Shown one piece after another: positions 2,353 through 58,942 of a DNA stretch of 64,000 nucleotides. Every line of letters begins with the position of its first letter. Within the stretch, counting starts at the first letter, position 1. The position numbers and the translations under genes are program-made. The stretch covers positions 160,001 through 224,000 of the forward strand of contig CAWAKC010000003.1 in NCBI GenBank assembly GCA_963782525.1, in the 5' to 3' direction. Below the pieces are notes generated by a model that was given only the letters and a program-made list of their open reading frames with translations, had not been told where the DNA came from and ran no database searches. Source of the DNA: Candidatus Bathyarchaeota archaeon (GTDB lineage Archaea; Thermoproteota; Bathyarchaeia; Bathyarchaeales; Bathycorpusculaceae).

Positions 2353-3156
2353 ATAACGAGAAGAAAAACAACCAGCATTCTGATGACATCAGTCTTGCTC
2401 TTTGCCGTTTTGATTGCCTCGACTTGCTTCCAAGCAACAAAAAACAAAGCCGTTATAGCCGAAACAACATCATCATCGGAATCTTCGACAAATTCCCTTC
2501 CCGCCTATGCCTTTAACGGCGCTTACGTCACTTATACTCTAAATGACTACATTGACCGCAAAATAACTTTTACTATTAGTGACGTTAACGTAACTTCTCA
2601 AACATTCAAGGTTTCTTGGAACTTCATCGGATCATGGGACTTCAAAAGTTCAAGCGAAGTCATATCCTTTGCAAGCATTTCGCCCTTTCCAGGTAATAGT
2701 TCAAAGAGCCCTTTTTCCGCAGTTAGTTTTGCCGATCTTCAAACGCTAAACAAGGGTGAAATTCCCGGGGATATGCCAAGCGGCGTTTTTGTTAGATCTA
2801 ACCAGTCTACTTACGCTTTGGGTGGATATTATTTCAATACGGACGAGCTACAGATACCCAGTGATATTAACGGCTCGAATGGCGTTAGTGTCTACGTTGA
2901 CGCCCATTCCGGTCTGACAGTTGTTGAGGATTTAGGAGAGAATGGCGCAGCATGGGGCATTGCTTATGGTCAACTGAGCTTAGTAAATACAAACGTTCCT
3001 ATGACCGTTAGCGTTAGAGCCTCTTTATCGCCCTCAGGCTCGGCGTTTTCAATGTTTCCTGTTCAAGTGGCTGTTGCAGGAGTTTCGGCAGTGGTTGTAG
3101 TCGGTGTTAGTTTGTTTGTCTATTTCAAGAAACGCAAGCGCCAAACAAAAACTTAA
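2353..3156 (+). CDS. Secreted, C-terminally anchored surface protein
   Basis: Signal peptide plus C-terminal TM followed by KKRKR; the basic n-region (TRRK) is only included if the start is ATA at 2353 (ORF track starts at 2383). Confidence 0.7.
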   Translation: MTRRKTTSILMTSVLLFAVLIASTCFQATKNKAVIAETTSSSESSTNSLPAYAFNGAYVTYTLNDYIDRKITFTISDVNVTSQTFKVSWNFIGSWDFKSSSEVISFASISPFPGNSSKSPFSAVSFADLQTLNKGEIPGDMPSGVFVRSNQSTYALGGYYFNTDELQIPSDINGSNGVSVYVDAHSGLTVVEDLGENGAAWGIAYGQLSLVNTNVPMTVSVRASLSPSGSAFSMFPVQVAVAGVSAVVVVGVSLFVYFKKRKRQTKT

Positions 3157-6114: not shown

Positions 6115-6675
6115 ATGATCCAACAAAATTATCATCTCTCTAATAAAATAAAGATAGGCCCTGAATCTGACAAAACTGATTATCCTAAGCACTGTGGATT
6201 TTACACAAGTTATTCTCGGTTTATCTTGAAAGCACTAAAAAAATCTTCTTTTCAAGAATTTCTATGCTCTATGCTTTTAGCCGAAAACATAGAAGAAAAA
6301 ATTGTCAACGCCGTTGATATCAAAGTTTTTCCAGCCCCTAGAAAAAACGGTTTCAACATCGTCGGCAAATGTGACACATTTAAGGGCAGAATTCGGATTT
6401 ATCCAAAAACTTTTAACTACTGCTTTGCCTTCCGAAAAAAGTACGGCAAAGACTACTTTTTTGTATTTGTTGAAAACAGAGCTAGAGCAGCGTTAATTCA
6501 TGAATTGCTGCATCTAAAATACATCAGTGATGAAGAAAAGGTACAAGAATTAACAGGAATATATTTTTCAGCTTACCTGAAAAAACGATTTAATAAGAAT
6601 TCAAATTTAGTATCATTGAATGAATTAATTTTTGCTTCGAAAAAGCACACACCTTTTTGCAGGGAAAGCTTGTAA
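6115..6675 (+). CDS. Zincin-like (HExxH) metalloprotease-fold protein
   Basis: LIHELLH motif preceded by GRIRIYP strand. Confidence 0.55.
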   Translation: MIQQNYHLSNKIKIGPESDKTDYPKHCGFYTSYSRFILKALKKSSFQEFLCSMLLAENIEEKIVNAVDIKVFPAPRKNGFNIVGKCDTFKGRIRIYPKTFNYCFAFRKKYGKDYFFVFVENRARAALIHELLHLKYISDEEKVQELTGIYFSAYLKKRFNKNSNLVSLNELIFASKKHTPFCRESL

Positions 6676-7561
6676 TTGGATTGAAAACGCAAGGTCTCCG
6701 TCCTTCAGCGGAAGGGTTTGCTGACATCGAGCGTGTTGTTTTTGGGTTTGTATATGATGATAAGTGTGTCGGGTTCTGTTTTGTTTATGGAGTGTTTTGT
6801 TCTCCAGAAGCTTCCGGTTTGGCTGGCAAGTTGATACTTTGTTAAAATGTTTTGTAATACTTTTTTTGTTTCTTCGTCTAATACACCTTTGATGAAGGCG
6901 ACACATTATTCATCAATGCTTCCGTAGGCAACAGTACAATCACAGGGCAGGATTATTCTTATCAATTCTAGCATCGTCAGAATTAGCTAATTAGGAAAGA
7001 ATATAGCTCTTCCATAACCCTTTTGCTTATTGAGGCTTTTGCGGAAATGGTTAACCTGATAATTGTAGGCACTTTAACTTGGTTTCATATATTCTCTGTT
7101 ATAGGTTGAACTGGCGCAGCATTAACTTTCTTAGTAACCATCAAGCCCTCGCTTGCAAAATTTTCGCCTCAAGGAAGCGGCGAATTCATTGTTAAGGTGT
7201 TGCCGAGGTTTATACGGTCTGTGCAAGTACTTTCCCTCCTTACTATCATTTTTGGGCCTTCTCTTGCTTTTGCAATGGCTGATGGTCCCCCAAAAGCCTT
7301 TGATCTGAAATCGCTCTGGTCTATCTGGCATTGTAATTGGTGCCTCGATTGGAATAACCGCGGTTCTGGTTGTTTTTCTCGTTTTAACTCCAACCGCGAA
7401 GAAGCTATCCAGTTTGATAGGGCAAATGCAACGTAATCCTCAACAGCCCCCACCCACCGAGTTAAGAGCATTACAAAAACGTCTAGCACTCATTCCACCT
7501 TTAGCCGTTTCGCTTTTACTTACAACGGAAATATTCATGGTGGCGGCTGCGCAATTTTAGA

Positions 7562-8227
7562 TTAGTCTTTGTGTTTTCGGCACATTTCTAAACCCAAAAG
7601 TTTTACTCCTCGCAGCCGTGATAACGAAACAATCAAAGAAGAAGCCACAACACCTTCAATAATTCCTGTTGGAAGGTACCACATAAGCAATGAGGGCACT
7701 GTGACAAATATGCCGCCGAGGGTGCCGACCATGGGGAAAAGACCAATCTCTATGCCCACTGCCAAAGCGGTGCACACGTTGGAGATGAATGAAGCCACAA
7801 ACATGCCGAGTGCCAACCGTTTTGTTGTGAATCCTTTTGATAGGAAGGCTTTTACTATGAAGAATGACATGGCGCCGATTACTGCCATGTTAAAGAGGTT
7901 TGCGCCCCAAGTGGTTAATCCGCCGTCTCCAAAAGCTAAGGCTTGGATAACTAAGGTTATAGCCATGCTGATGATTCCTGCAGCGGGTCCAAGAACCATT
8001 GAGATGGCTGTTCCACCCAAGAAATGCCAGGTGCTGCCGCCGCCTGCAACAGGAAACTCAAACAACTGAACCACTAGCAAAAGAGCACTGACAACGGCGA
8101 TTAGAGGAATGATGTATCTTGGGTAATTTCTTTTCATACCGTGCCAAGCCCATGCTAAGAAGCTGAAGGCTACGATGTACATACTTATGCATGCGTATGG
8201 GTTTAGGATGCCGTCGGGAATGTGTAT
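7562..8227 (-). CDS. cbiM: ECF transporter S component CbiM/NikM
   Basis: In-frame extension gives (M)HIPDGIL; GSTWHFLG and QALAFGDGGLTTWGANLFNM motifs; start codon reads ATA. Confidence 0.9.
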   Translation of the reverse strand: MHIPDGILNPYACISMYIVAFSFLAWAWHGMKRNYPRYIIPLIAVVSALLLVVQLFEFPVAGGGSTWHFLGGTAISMVLGPAAGIISMAITLVIQALAFGDGGLTTWGANLFNMAVIGAMSFFIVKAFLSKGFTTKRLALGMFVASFISNVCTALAVGIEIGLFPMVGTLGGIFVTVPSLLMWYLPTGIIEGVVASSLIVSLSRLRGVKLLGLEMCRKHKD

Positions 8228-8240
8228 TTATGTTTCCTCG

Positions 8241-8268
8241 GTAACACGAATTAGAAAAATAGTATTAC
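8241..8268. promoter_or_regulatory. NikR-like operator
   Basis: GTAACAC-N14-GTATTAC, a 28-bp imperfect palindrome between the TATA box (~8277-8283) and the cbiM start. Confidence 0.7.
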
Positions 8269-8436
8269 AGTGATGGATTTATACCAATCGATTGATTTGA
8301 CAAGCTCTTGTGTCGAGAAATTTTGGCAAACCAACTCTTAAACCCATATCACAGATGATTGCCATGAGTAACAATCTGCATTTGGAGGCAACATTGGTCG
8401 TTCTACCTAAAGACGAAAACACTTAGCAATCCTGAG

Positions 8437-9474
8437 CTAGCTTGCGTTATCAGACAACTCAGCGTTAAAGAACGTTTTAAACTGAGTTGGTTTGTCCTTA
8501 GAGCATAATAGCGGGGCAAAAAGGTTAACAGGCCAATGCGGAAACGTCTTATACAGGTAAGTATCCGCTTTTTCTATTCCTTTTATTCTTCGGAATGTTT
8601 CTGTTACCTCAAATAAATCCTCAAAATCATGAATAGCCACCAGCGCCCTCACATCGTAAGGTCCCACTAATTTTATTGCTATAATCAGGTTGGGCATCTT
8701 AAAAATTTGAGCCATAATTTCCTGCATCTTACTTCTATTTGAAATTTTAATAAATAAATGTGCCATAGCCTTAAAACCGACCTTATCTAAACTAACAGAT
8801 ATTGTGGCTTTAGTCAGAACTTTTCCTTTAAGTCTGTCGTATCTTTGGATAACATTTTTGGGTGAAATACCCAACTGCTTTGCCACTACTCTAAACGGTG
8901 TGCGAGCATTTCGTGACAAGATGGCGGCTATTTGCCGGTCGGTTTCGTCGAGTTTCTCTTCGTGGCGGTTTATTTCGAGGGGTTTGTAAATTTTCGCCTG
9001 CTTTAGGGGTTTAATGACTAAATTTTCTGTGTGGTCCATATTTACTGATTCTGCCCAAATGAGGCTATCTATGAGTTCAACTTTGGGGCTGGTTTCAATC
9101 TCCATAAGTATTCCCGACAATTTTTCGATGTCGTGTAGTACTAAGAATGCTTGGATATTGTATTTTCCAAAGTTACCGTTTGCCCCGCAGATGTAGGGTT
9201 TGCTTCTTAGGAACTTTATTACTTCTTCTTCATTTTCTGCGGAAGTTACGATTCCTAAATCGACAGTACATTTATAGCCTAAGCTGTAAGGGTTCACAAG
9301 CATTATTTCGCCCTTGATTATGCCTGCTTTTTTTAATCGTTGGTAACGGCTTCTGACGGCGACAACCGATATCTTGCAGTCTTTTGCAATGGTTGTGAAG
9401 CTTGTTCTTGAGTCGCTTAGAAGTATCTGCAAGATTTTCGCATCGATTTCGTCAAGTTTTTTTGTTTTTTGCAT
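8437..9474 (-). CDS. Tandem (double) Lrp/AsnC transcriptional regulator
   Basis: Two HTH+RAM units (LDEIDAKILQIL...; LDETDRQIAAIL...); likely ATG at 9474. Confidence 0.9.
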   Translation of the reverse strand: MQKTKKLDEIDAKILQILLSDSRTSFTTIAKDCKISVVAVRSRYQRLKKAGIIKGEIMLVNPYSLGYKCTVDLGIVTSAENEEEVIKFLRSKPYICGANGNFGKYNIQAFLVLHDIEKLSGILMEIETSPKVELIDSLIWAESVNMDHTENLVIKPLKQAKIYKPLEINRHEEKLDETDRQIAAILSRNARTPFRVVAKQLGISPKNVIQRYDRLKGKVLTKATISVSLDKVGFKAMAHLFIKISNRSKMQEIMAQIFKMPNLIIAIKLVGPYDVRALVAIHDFEDLFEVTETFRRIKGIEKADTYLYKTFPHWPVNLFAPLLCSKDKPTQFKTFFNAELSDNAS

Positions 9475-9594
9475 GGAAGGGCGACCTAATTTAGCACTGT
9501 GTATTTGATGGGCAAGCAATTAAACTTTTTCCGCTTTCAGAGGACGCAAACAGCTAGATAATCTTCAATACACGTTTAAATTGTTTCCATTTTA

Positions 9595-37224: not shown

Positions 37225-37534
37225 TGGAACAGCTGATTTGGATATAATTGCAGTACGAGCAAGAGAAAGATTAAGAATTGATCCGAGGACAGGGTATTTT
37301 CTAATTTATATTTCTAAATTATCTAAAAAATTAGAAAATTAATACTTTATCAATTTATTTTCTTATTTATTTTCTTTAATCGATTAAGATTTAGAAATTA
37401 AAAATTTAGGAAATGAGTGCTCCTTATTACTCCCTGAATTGAACCTTTTTCTTCTCAAGGACACCGCGTCATTTGGTAGGGGGATAAAAAATTTATATGT
37501 ACTCTCTGTTCAGTAGTGAACCAAGGAGATCAAT

Positions 37535-38602
37535 ATACCAAAGGTAATTAAGGGTAGAACAAAAAAAGCCGGTTTGCCCCCTGGGACAATCGTATACATT
37601 GGGAAACATAAAAACGAAAAAGTACGTATCAGATTTATCGATTACGATGAACAGCATTTTGAAGAGAAAGAAGCTAAAGCAATTGAAGAGATATTTGAGT
37701 TTAGAGACAAGCCTACCATTACTTGGATAAATATTGATGGGCTTCAGAGAATTGATGTTATCGAAAAAATTGGGAAACACTATAACCTGCATCCGCTTGT
37801 TCTTGAAGATATTGCAAACACTGAACAGCGTCCAAAAATGGAGGACTTTACGGATTACATCTACATTGTGTTGAGGATGCTGCGGTATGATGATCAGAAC
37901 AGCGAGATCATATCCGAGCAGCTTAGTCTGATTCTTGGTTCAAGCTGGGTGATATCTTTTCAGGAAAGTGAGGGCGATGTTTTTGACCCTGTTAGAGAGC
38001 GATTAAGAAACAATAAAGGTCGCATTAGAACGCTGGGTGCTGACTACCTGGTATATACCCTAATAGACGCTGTGGTAGACAACTATTTCACAGTCCTCGA
38101 GAAGATGGGCGGAAAAATCGAAGATATAGAGGATGAATTAATTGCAAATCCAGAACCCGCAATCTTAAAGGTCATACACGACTTAAGGAGACAAAGCATA
38201 TCTCTACGCAAATCAGTCTGGCCCTTAAGGGAGGTCGTCAGTTGCTTAGAGAGAATGGAGTCAAAATTAATCAACAAAACCACAAATATCTATCTAAGGG
38301 ATGTGTACGACCACACAATTCAAGTTATTGATTCGATAGAAACGTTTCGCGACATGCTCTCAGGAATGCTGGATATTTACCTTTCCAGCATCAGCAACAG
38401 AATGAATGAAGTGATGAAAGTGCTCACGATTATCGCGACTATTTTTATTCCTCTAACTTTAGTCGCAGGCATTTATGGAATGAACTTTGCCTATATGCCT
38501 GAACTTAGGTCGCCTTGGGGTTATCCGTTCGTATTAGTTGTTATGTTATCAATAGCAATAGTGATGTTGTTTTACTTCAGAAAGAAGAAATGGATATTAT
38601 AG
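37535..38602 (+). CDS. corA: Magnesium/cobalt transporter CorA
   Basis: GIYGMNF and MPEL motifs; N-terminal PKVIKGRTKKAGLPPGT begins at ATA 37535. Confidence 0.96.
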   Translation: MPKVIKGRTKKAGLPPGTIVYIGKHKNEKVRIRFIDYDEQHFEEKEAKAIEEIFEFRDKPTITWINIDGLQRIDVIEKIGKHYNLHPLVLEDIANTEQRPKMEDFTDYIYIVLRMLRYDDQNSEIISEQLSLILGSSWVISFQESEGDVFDPVRERLRNNKGRIRTLGADYLVYTLIDAVVDNYFTVLEKMGGKIEDIEDELIANPEPAILKVIHDLRRQSISLRKSVWPLREVVSCLERMESKLINKTTNIYLRDVYDHTIQVIDSIETFRDMLSGMLDIYLSSISNRMNEVMKVLTIIATIFIPLTLVAGIYGMNFAYMPELRSPWGYPFVLVVMLSIAIVMLFYFRKKKWIL

Positions 38603-52414: not shown

Positions 52415-52491
52415 TGGTGCCGAGGGCAGGGTTTGAACATGCGACGACTCGGTCTTCAGCCGAGCGCTCTCCCAGGCTGAGCTACCTCGGC
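52415..52491 (-). tRNA. tRNA-Phe(GAA), CCA encoded
   Basis: Cloverleaf GCCGAGG/CCUCGGC, anticodon stem CUCGG/CCGAG with GAA; one T-stem mismatch. Confidence 0.95.
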
Positions 52492-55873: not shown

Positions 55874-55947
55874 GGGCCGTTAGTCTAGCTGGCTAGGACG
55901 TCGCCCTCACGCGGCGAAGATCACCGGTTCAAATCCGGTACGGCCCA
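55874..55947 (+). tRNA. tRNA-Val(CAC)
   Basis: GGGCCGU/ACGGCCC acceptor, UCGCC/GGCGA anticodon stem with CAC, ACCGG-UUCAAAU-CCGGU T arm. Confidence 0.96.
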
Positions 55948-57976: not shown

Positions 57977-58807
57977 TTAGAAGGGTCTGAATAGACCAAC
58001 AAACACTAACCAAACTAGAAACGTTTTCGCTACGAAACTAAGGACAATGTAGGTTCTTTCTCCATAAAGATAGTCTCTCCATCGTCCAACAGCCTTGTAC
58101 TGCAAAACTTGATTGACCGCAAAACTCATGAAAAGCGCCAGATATACAACGAATATCACATAAACGAAGTTTGGAACATTGCCTCCACTTGAGGCTACAG
58201 CGCCTCCGAAGTAGGCAAACAGGACAACCCAGGGAAAACCGCCGGATATGCATCCTAAAATAAACGATGACCAGTTTGTTTTCTCCGTTTTCTGATTAAC
58301 CAACTCCATGAGATATCCAAACATTATCATCATAGCGTTCAAAACAAATATCATTGCTAGCGACCAGAAATCCCAGATCCCAACGAAAGTAGCAATTATC
58401 CAGATCATTATCGAACTTGAAAAAGCGTATTCGAACCAGCGATAGGGGTTCATGCCTTTTTTGAGGTTTTCATTGTATGATTTATTCTTTGGAAAAGCTA
58501 CTGTGAAATGTGCAAATGCAGAGATAAGCGGGAAAGCGGCAAGTAGCAATCCTAGATGAGTGACGGTGAAGAGAACCTGCGGGTTTGGCGCTGCAAAAAA
58601 TGCGGGAGTTGTTGGACTGACATGGGCAAACGTGAGGTAGAATGTGTATATGTCTGTGCCTTTGGGCCAAGTTAATAGAAATGTCAATGCCAGAATGATA
58701 ATGCCGTTTATCAACTGTAGGGTGCCTGCACCTATGTTGAATTTTTTTAGGTATCCAAGAGAGATAGGCGATTTGGCAATTATTTCCTGTCTTTCTTTGT
58801 AATTTAT
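57977..58807 (-). CDS. heR: Heliorhodopsin
   Basis: SAFAH, NPYRWFEYAFSSSIM, FGYLME, YGERTYIVLSFVAK (SxxxK retinal lysine); N-terminus extends to ATA at 58807. Confidence 0.95.
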   Translation of the reverse strand: MNYKERQEIIAKSPISLGYLKKFNIGAGTLQLINGIIILALTFLLTWPKGTDIYTFYLTFAHVSPTTPAFFAAPNPQVLFTVTHLGLLLAAFPLISAFAHFTVAFPKNKSYNENLKKGMNPYRWFEYAFSSSIMIWIIATFVGIWDFWSLAMIFVLNAMMIMFGYLMELVNQKTEKTNWSSFILGCISGGFPWVVLFAYFGGAVASSGGNVPNFVYVIFVVYLALFMSFAVNQVLQYKAVGRWRDYLYGERTYIVLSFVAKTFLVWLVFVGLFRPF

Positions 58808-58942
58808 AATTATTCCTCCTTTCTACTCTTGTCTATCGGTATCTTGGATTAATTAGATTAACTGTTGCCTCAGAGCCTGAGCAGTGCCGCAAATGAAAAA
58901 TTTATATTCAACAGTATTTTCATATGATTCAGGTGTCAAATT

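Follow-up and report, generated by a model that had tools for sequence, protein, structure and literature searches.

It is very likely that translation of about 1% of the genes of this archaeon starts at genuine near-cognate codons, AUA and less often AUC, AUU, ACG or CUG, and that such starts occur widely in related Bathyarchaeia. In the window, the 64,000-nucleotide stretch of DNA that was analysed, the affected genes would be cbiM, corA and a heliorhodopsin gene, and elsewhere in the genome argG, pstA, rpS11, an ESCRT-III gene, a homolog of the NfnI small subunit and others. Archaeal start-codon stringency is thought to permit AUG, GUG and UUG. No in-frame canonical start precedes the conserved N-terminus in cbiM, corA, heliorhodopsin, pstA, argG or the others, and the start codon is aligned with the canonical starts of orthologs (3 of 13 loci for cbiM, 15 of 77 for argG, 23 of 37 for pstA and five species for heliorhodopsin). 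As far as aligned DNA can establish it, these comparisons show the ATA sites to be working starts and not dead alleles. Decay is contradicted by the purifying selection on the codons behind the ATA, and an assembly error by the agreement of several independent assemblies and by the contigs of two DNA runs, which keep the ATA. The original prediction that this lineage begins translation at ATA is supported by the start columns of relatives for cbiM, argG and pstA; the relatives do not all carry ATG, and the contigs of public DNA runs carry ATA. The part of it that singled out AUA holds in so far as ATA is in use, but ATC, ATT, CTG and ACG are also found at conserved start columns. Among the papers listed in literature searches none dealt with non-canonical starts in Bathyarchaeia. 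Non-canonical starts themselves are known; a conserved set of them, dominated by AUA and found in core genes throughout an archaeal class, did not turn up among those papers.

The window belongs to a genome (G000) of 2.87 Mb in 12 contigs with ~43% G+C. Re-reading of the sequence confirmed the predicted bases, an ATA behind an SD-like motif at the Met1 position of cbiM, corA and heliorhodopsin (Table 1). In all three genes an in-frame stop lies 0-5 codons ahead of the ATA and the first ATG, GTG or TTG 13-31 codons after it, within conserved sequence. In cbiM an upstream start in frame is excluded because TAA directly precedes the ATA, and the next canonical start is the ATG at 8182, 15 codons past the ATA. 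The CbiM protein matches Pfam PF01891 with an E-value of 8.9e-46, profile positions 1-201 corresponding to residues 2-205, and the x-His-[IVL]-P-D-G motif is present at its N-terminus, with profile position 1 at residue 2. The ATA of corA, at 37535, is followed by PKVIKGRTKKAGLPPG, and the next canonical start, TTG 37574, encodes the Leu of the conserved GLPPG. For heliorhodopsin the ATA occupies 58807-58805 (-) and the next canonical start, TTG 58714, is 31 codons downstream. A fourth candidate, the gene at 2353, had been ranked as the weaker case and is indeed weak, since an ATG lies 10 codons downstream at 2383 and a good SD is lacking; the ATA lies two codons past an in-frame TGA, and no ortholog of the gene was found in the closest relative, G010, with blastn or tblastn.

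Table 1. Features of the window genes (window positions), and genes elsewhere in the genome for which a non-canonical start is indicated.
Feature	Position	Strand	Start codon	Remarks
cbiM-family gene read from ATA	7562..8227	-	ATA	221 codons + stop; translation IHIPDG...; PF01891
ATA in Met1 column of cbiM	8225..8227	-	ATA	then CAC ATT CCC GAC GGC = HIPDG
In-frame TAA abutting the cbiM ATA	8228..8230	-		read from bases
GAGG, short SD-like motif	8236..8239	-		8 nt (aaaca + TAA) before the cbiM ATA
Dyad GTAATAC-N14-GTGTTAC in cbiM leader	8241..8268	-		kept in the 11 ATH-type leaders aligned
GGTATAAAT, TATA-box-like element	8277..8285	-		~50-60 nt before the cbiM ATA; conserved in leader alignment
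corA gene read from ATA	37535..38602	+	ATA	355 codons + stop; PF01544, E 1.6e-77
corA upstream	37514..37528	+		in-frame TAG TGA 37514-37519; AAGGAG 37523-37528, 6 nt before ATA
Heliorhodopsin gene read from ATA	57977..58807	-	ATA	276 codons + stop; PF18761, E 1.7e-84
Heliorhodopsin upstream	58815..58825	-		in-frame TAG 58825-58823; AAGGAGG 58821-58815, 7 nt before ATA
Secreted/membrane protein candidate	2353..3156	+	ATA 2353 possible	ATG 2383 sufficient; no Pfam family
pstA			ATA	needs non-canonical start (conservation screen)
argG			ATA	needs non-canonical start (conservation screen)
rpS11	G000:C7:48390-48800	-	CTG	needs non-canonical start (conservation screen)
Snf7/ESCRT-III gene			ATC	needs non-canonical start (conservation screen)
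ATP-citrate-lyase-like gene			ATC	needs non-canonical start (conservation screen)
Membrane protein	C1:451563		ATC	needs non-canonical start (conservation screen)
sufS			ATC or ATA	needs non-canonical start (conservation screen)
NfnI small-subunit homolog			ACG	similarity to 5jca_S from residue 2 on
DUF362 gene			ACG	needs non-canonical start (conservation screen)
Tubulin-like gene			ACG or ATC	needs non-canonical start (conservation screen)
DUF1616 gene			CTG	needs non-canonical start (conservation screen)
Mannosyltransferase gene			ATA	behind AGGTGA; found by SD screen

CbiM and NikM are the substrate-binding components of ECF transporters, in which the N-terminal Met1-His2 has a metal-binding role. 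Among 13 related cbiM loci from species-representative genomes the Met1 column holds ATA in nine, ATT in one and ATG in three. All five species of the genus in which the gene was compared (84-100% protein identity) have ATA at Met1, and the HIPDG codons that follow differ among them only synonymously. Two public DNA runs, with contigs that are identical in one case and ~90% alike in the other, show no other letter at 8225-8227. A relative's cbiM gene is covered in part by contigs from RNA libraries (X17 and X18), though contigs cannot show transcription or translation. Paralogs of cbiM in other species carry ACG (L016, in G015) or ATA (L012, in G006) in the Met1 column, and an in-frame stop precedes each of them, by two codons in L012 and by three in L016.

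Two types of cbiM leader are seen (L273-L285): loci with ATA or ATT share GGTATAAAT, the dyad and the GAGG, and those with ATG have a different leader with GTAACAC...GTTCACAC. If GGTATAAAT serves as the promoter, the leader would be ~35-40 nt long. The dyad could be the operator of a metal regulator, or a hairpin beside the SD. As an RNA structure it was considered insufficient, having a 7-bp stem, one compensatory pair and a covariation term of -0.12 kcal/mol. Neither of the downstream ORFs (7169-7489 and 6625-6906) belongs to a Pfam family and no cbiN, cbiQ or cbiO partner was recognised in the ORFs adjoining cbiM. Upstream on the same strand, 8437-9519 (-) encodes a 360-residue protein that has two AsnC/NirDL-type HTH domains and is similar to fused proteins of the siroheme decarboxylase or regulator kind.

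Seven of ten heliorhodopsin orthologs could be scored and share one start column, M-N-[YFS]-[KQE]-E-R, with the next 14 residues conserved. The column holds ATA in G000 and G001, ATG in three species and TTG in two. Between G000 and G012 all four changes in the 23 codons after the start are synonymous. G001 has an in-frame ATG seven codons upstream of its ATA, so that only the heliorhodopsin gene of G000 strictly needs the ATA. No close ortholog of corA was found in the genus; the matches were a homolog in G040, with 66% identity, and a fragment from G022. The two informative homologs share the N-terminal KKAGLPPG and begin with GTG or ATG 13-14 codons before GLPPG, as against 12 codons for the ATA of corA.

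The widest comparison is for argG. Six codons before LAYSGG, 22 species of the genus have ATA (17), ATT (2), ATC (1), ATG (1) or TTG (1), and a stop lies one codon upstream in one species and four codons upstream in another. For Bathyarchaeia as a whole (80 loci, 67-95% protein identity, 77 scored) the column contains ATA in 50, ATG in 11, ACG in eight, TTG in four and ATC in two, with two misaligned; the two argG sets and those for cbiM and pstA overlap, and counts from related species cannot be treated as independent. In one locus of the wide set a stop immediately precedes the ATA. An in-frame ATG is present five codons upstream in 13 of the 77 loci, and many loci have a GTG one codon before LAYSGG. 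The SD of argG is GGGGG, which requires a G-U pair. For pstA, of which 37 of 44 loci were scored, the column is ATA in 14, and in 23 a canonical codon is found at the column or within one codon of it. Most of these loci, ATA and canonical alike, have the same GGAGG 9 nt upstream and, after it, the N-terminus [M/I]-I-S-N-Y-A-F-R-K-F in common. The ATA loci of pstA have no upstream canonical start, and the next one downstream is 13-74 codons away.

In rpS11 (L223-L252, 28 of 30 loci scored) the 22 species of the genus read GGAGGCGG-YAG-ATT-YTG-AGC, one of them with GTT for ATT. The ATT was rejected as the start, the 28-species alignment placing it at the next codon, YTG. Nine species, G000 among them, have CTG there, and the rest of the genus, about half of it, has TTG. 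Other families have ATG-AGC at the aligned position in five of six species and TTG-AGC in one. The YTG overlaps the TGA of the upstream gene (YTGA), and the arrangement looks like a termination-reinitiation junction that would tolerate CTG.

To what extent other genes are affected was assessed against G010 (~88-91% DNA identity, 2.51 Mb), for which 1,781 ORFs were paired with those of G000. A screen that ignored SD motifs and looked for conservation of the coding type ahead of the first canonical start flagged 35 ORFs. Differences before the first canonical start concentrate at third positions, with counts at the three codon positions of 4, 1 and 18, 1, 0 and 11, 3, 2 and 12, and 1, 1 and 9. 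The Pfam domains of CbiM, ArgG, rpS11, SufS, LeuA, Snf7, the tubulin-like protein and a response regulator all start before the first ATG, GTG or TTG. Together with the three window genes, ~16 genes appear to need a non-canonical start, ~1% of the 1,781 ortholog pairs, a number that depends on a choice among the flagged ORFs made by eye and with Pfam, in which frameshifted or 5'-truncated ORFs were dropped without a rule (Table 1). The expectation that AUA would be used routinely, with many genes truncated, is therefore right about the gene callers, which do mis-call these starts, but too high in number. Several flagged ORFs, among them those at C3 minus offset 452392 and C7 plus offset 211642 and including a fumarase/aspartase-like gene, are 5'-truncated or frameshifted in G000 relative to G010 and may be pseudogenes or assembly errors.

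Two further genes were noted. A response-regulator/histidine-kinase fusion at G000:C1:89379-90863 (-) begins TAA AAA TTA AAA ATC CTC GTA (KLKILVIEDN) behind AAGGAG and has no ATG, GTG or TTG for 19 codons; its sole ATH is 15 nt from the SD, and the start would be TTA, AAA or ATC. In a leuA/homocitrate-synthase-like gene at G000:C1:222432-223961 (-) there is no canonical start for 38 codons (64 in G010), and no obvious near-cognate start was found after an SD.

These comparisons also bear on whether translation could instead begin at the next downstream canonical codon, the codons before it being a leader or the ATA alleles decaying G-to-A mutants. Gene callers do pick such a start, 60 of 120 database relatives of CbiM beginning MYIVAF, and for the gene at 2353 the ATG 10 codons downstream is adequate. 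However, a downstream start would cost CbiM its HIPDG, ArgG its LAYSGGLDTS, rpS11 30 residues of the S11 domain and PstA its first helix. The codons before the downstream start evolve as coding sequence and the ATA is retained across dozens of species in argG and pstA, all of which makes this explanation very improbable.

SD motifs are found more often at the near-cognate sites than at ordinary starts. Unambiguous starts in G000 (n=803) comprise 466 ATG, 217 TTG and 120 GTG, in agreement with the heavy use of TTG originally noted, and an SD of at least 5 nt precedes 23% of the ATG, 20% of the TTG and 6% of the GTG starts. Such an SD is present in seven of 11 candidates from the SD-blind screen, compared with the 23% of the 466 ATG starts. 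Of 15 near-cognate genes scored, 10 have an SD of 5-7 nt at a distance of 5-10 nt; cbiM has only GAGG (4 nt). Genome-wide, ATA is not enriched behind SD motifs (0.94% vs a mean of 0.95%); no more than a small fraction of ATA codons can act as starts. In a stricter screen, with an SD of at least 6 nt and at least six codons before the first canonical start, ATA ranks top, with 8 of 564 (1.4%) against 104 of 26,121 (0.40%) for all codons, a suggestive result that would lose its significance once corrected for 61 codons. Another SD screen was confounded by codons adjoining true starts. At first-ATG columns ATG in one of G000 and G010 is replaced by ATA in 16 cases, AAG in seven, ACG in six and CTG in six; this exchange does not discriminate, because the 16 cases are no commoner than internal Met/Ile exchanges (141/9,676) and many have a nearby start.

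Within genes, ATA behaves as an isoleucine codon. Of 8,999 internal ATA codons in two close genomes 1,289 align with ATC or ATT and 126 with ATG, and there is therefore no change in the genetic code. In mitochondria (NCBI tables 2 and 5) AUA is both a Met codon and a start codon. Initiation at AUA is common to both systems, but mitochondrial AUA is Met everywhere whereas internal ATA in Bathyarchaeia is Ile. Internal Ile usage is 27:33:40% for ATA:ATT:ATC and the argG start column is 50:0:2; given that internal ATA turns over (1,289/8,999), this column indicates that the third base of the start codon is under selection and that the ATA there is not an ordinary Ile codon.

The same internal codons weigh on a further explanation, in which AUA would be reassigned to Met or the genes would be reached through an out-of-frame ATG with a frameshift or by read-through of the upstream stop. 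It draws some support from argG, many of whose leaders contain ATGGGGGAG with an out-of-frame ATG 16 nt before the ATA. In many species, however, this ATG is missing, with ACGGGGG or AAGGGGG in its place, and in others it is in frame; cbiM, pstA and corA have no such out-of-frame ATG, the sequence upstream of cbiM is a promoter-like region and not a gene, and internal ATA pairs with ATC or ATT, not with ATG. Recoding of any of these kinds is accordingly extremely improbable. The argG leader as such, AAAA[TC]GGGGGAGCAAA (G000:C1:348579-348610 (-), L253-L365), is conserved across Bathyarchaeia and often holds an ATG, which does not share the reading frame of argG except in the 13 of 77 loci already mentioned.

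Initiation at near-cognate codons would proceed with standard components. The mRNA leader, through its Shine-Dalgarno motif, would pair with the CCUCC end of the 16S rRNA, the gene for which, located by an Rfam family search, ends in GGAUCACCUCCU in G000. Pairing would place the near-cognate codon, 6-10 nt downstream, in the P site, where the ordinary initiator Met-tRNA (CAU) would accept it with one mismatch, so that Met comes first. The data establish which codons occupy the start column, that they are conserved, that the sequence after them is coding and that SD motifs accompany them; use of the initiator tRNA, and Met as the first residue, are inferred, and a weak start codon might keep output low or adjustable. 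The initiator tRNA gene of G000 looks standard, with A1:U72, three G:C pairs in the anticodon stem, the anticodon CAU and the loop CUCAUAA, and aIF1 (SUI1, C11:152399-152785) begins with ATG and looks ordinary. Neither gene shows anything unusual. No tRNA with the anticodon UAU was found among the 46 tRNAs of G000. The only Rfam matches in the window are two tRNA genes, at 52418-52491 (-) and 55874-55947 (+).

It is conceivable, though improbable, that the same sites are used by other chemistry, AUA being preferred through a lineage-specific change: an initiator tRNA with a modified C34, less stringent aIF1 or aIF2, or initiation by the AUA-reading tRNA-Ile2, with Ile as the first residue. The preference for ATA would fit: ATA:ATT:ATC is 50:0:2 at the argG start column and 9:1:0 at that of cbiM, and the three codons are about equal in the E. 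coli data as given in that report (10.1101/063800). G000 has a second CAU tRNA, with G1:C72, that could be tRNA-Ile2. In CbiM the metal is bound by the N-terminal amino group together with His2, so that Ile as residue 1 would be tolerated. On the other hand, the initiator tRNA gene and aIF1 are as ordinary as described above, the ACG and CTG starts fit a simple one-mismatch tolerance better, and DNA cannot reveal tRNA modifications. One-mismatch decoding by the ordinary initiator tRNA gives no explanation for the preference of ATA over ATT and ATC, and this leaves room for a lineage-specific feature of a tRNA or initiation factor. A stronger version, that AUA is a positively selected fourth start across Bathyarchaeia, favoured over AUU and AUC by a lineage-specific property, either initiator tRNA modification or the stringency of aIF1/aIF2, and setting the output of argG, pstA and cbiM, is possible but seems rather doubtful. 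A point against near-cognate initiation in general is that an output of 1-2% of that of AUG, as in model organisms, sits oddly with rpS11.

In bacteria the weak start of infC, which encodes IF3, is autoregulated. The infC start is AUU or AUA (PMC2830850). The genes described here resemble infC in having a weak start whose use would hinge on discrimination by the initiation machinery but, being transporters, a rhodopsin and biosynthetic enzymes, they are unrelated to initiation, and since aIF1 starts with ATG an infC-like loop is not indicated. The closest parallel is in Deinococcus, for which the same source describes conserved non-canonical starts in dnaA (ATC), rpsL (CTG) and infC (ATA) shown by N-terminal proteomics (PMC2830850). 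There, too, near-cognate starts in conserved housekeeping genes are kept across relatives and missed by annotation, giving heterogeneous predicted N-termini. Deinococcus is a bacterium with four such genes and proof from peptides, whereas in Bathyarchaeia an archaeal class is concerned, more genes are affected, AUA is dominant and ACG is also used, all this being known from sequence. In E. coli, AUA, AUC, AUU and CUG initiate at 1-2% of the level of AUG (10.1101/063800). The codon set is the same, the mRNAs are SD-led and Met is expected first; those are reporter measurements, in which the portion of the report drawn on mentions no preference of AUA over AUC or AUU, whereas the genes here are natural and conserved.

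For annotation the consequences can be seen in the 120 closest CbiM proteins in the database, of which 42 start M-HIPDG, 60 start at a downstream Met and lack HIPDG, as expected if gene callers truncate, and 18 are extended, mostly reading ...I-HIPDG. Callers of the Prodigal type permit only ATG, GTG and TTG, which leaves database proteins of the class with missing or spurious N-terminal residues (78 of the 120 CbiM entries). The entries for ArgG, PstA, rpS11, SufS and ESCRT-III are probably affected likewise. Mis-called starts distort domain calls, signal-peptide calls, structure predictions and pseudogene counts in a widespread and mostly uncultured class. Since AUA and ACG starts are conserved in core genes, the class is also a natural setting in which to study how start-codon stringency depends on aIF1, the SD helix and the initiator tRNA. 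Were AUA indeed a fourth start, a whole archaeal class would use a set of start codons for which present gene finders make no provision. Among database records, a few contigs with Bathyarchaeia-like argG or pstA (L320, L353 and L394; 71-82% identity) occur under the titles Limnocylindrales, Sulfotelmatobacter and Anaerolineales, and these bacterial-titled contigs are probably mis-binned.
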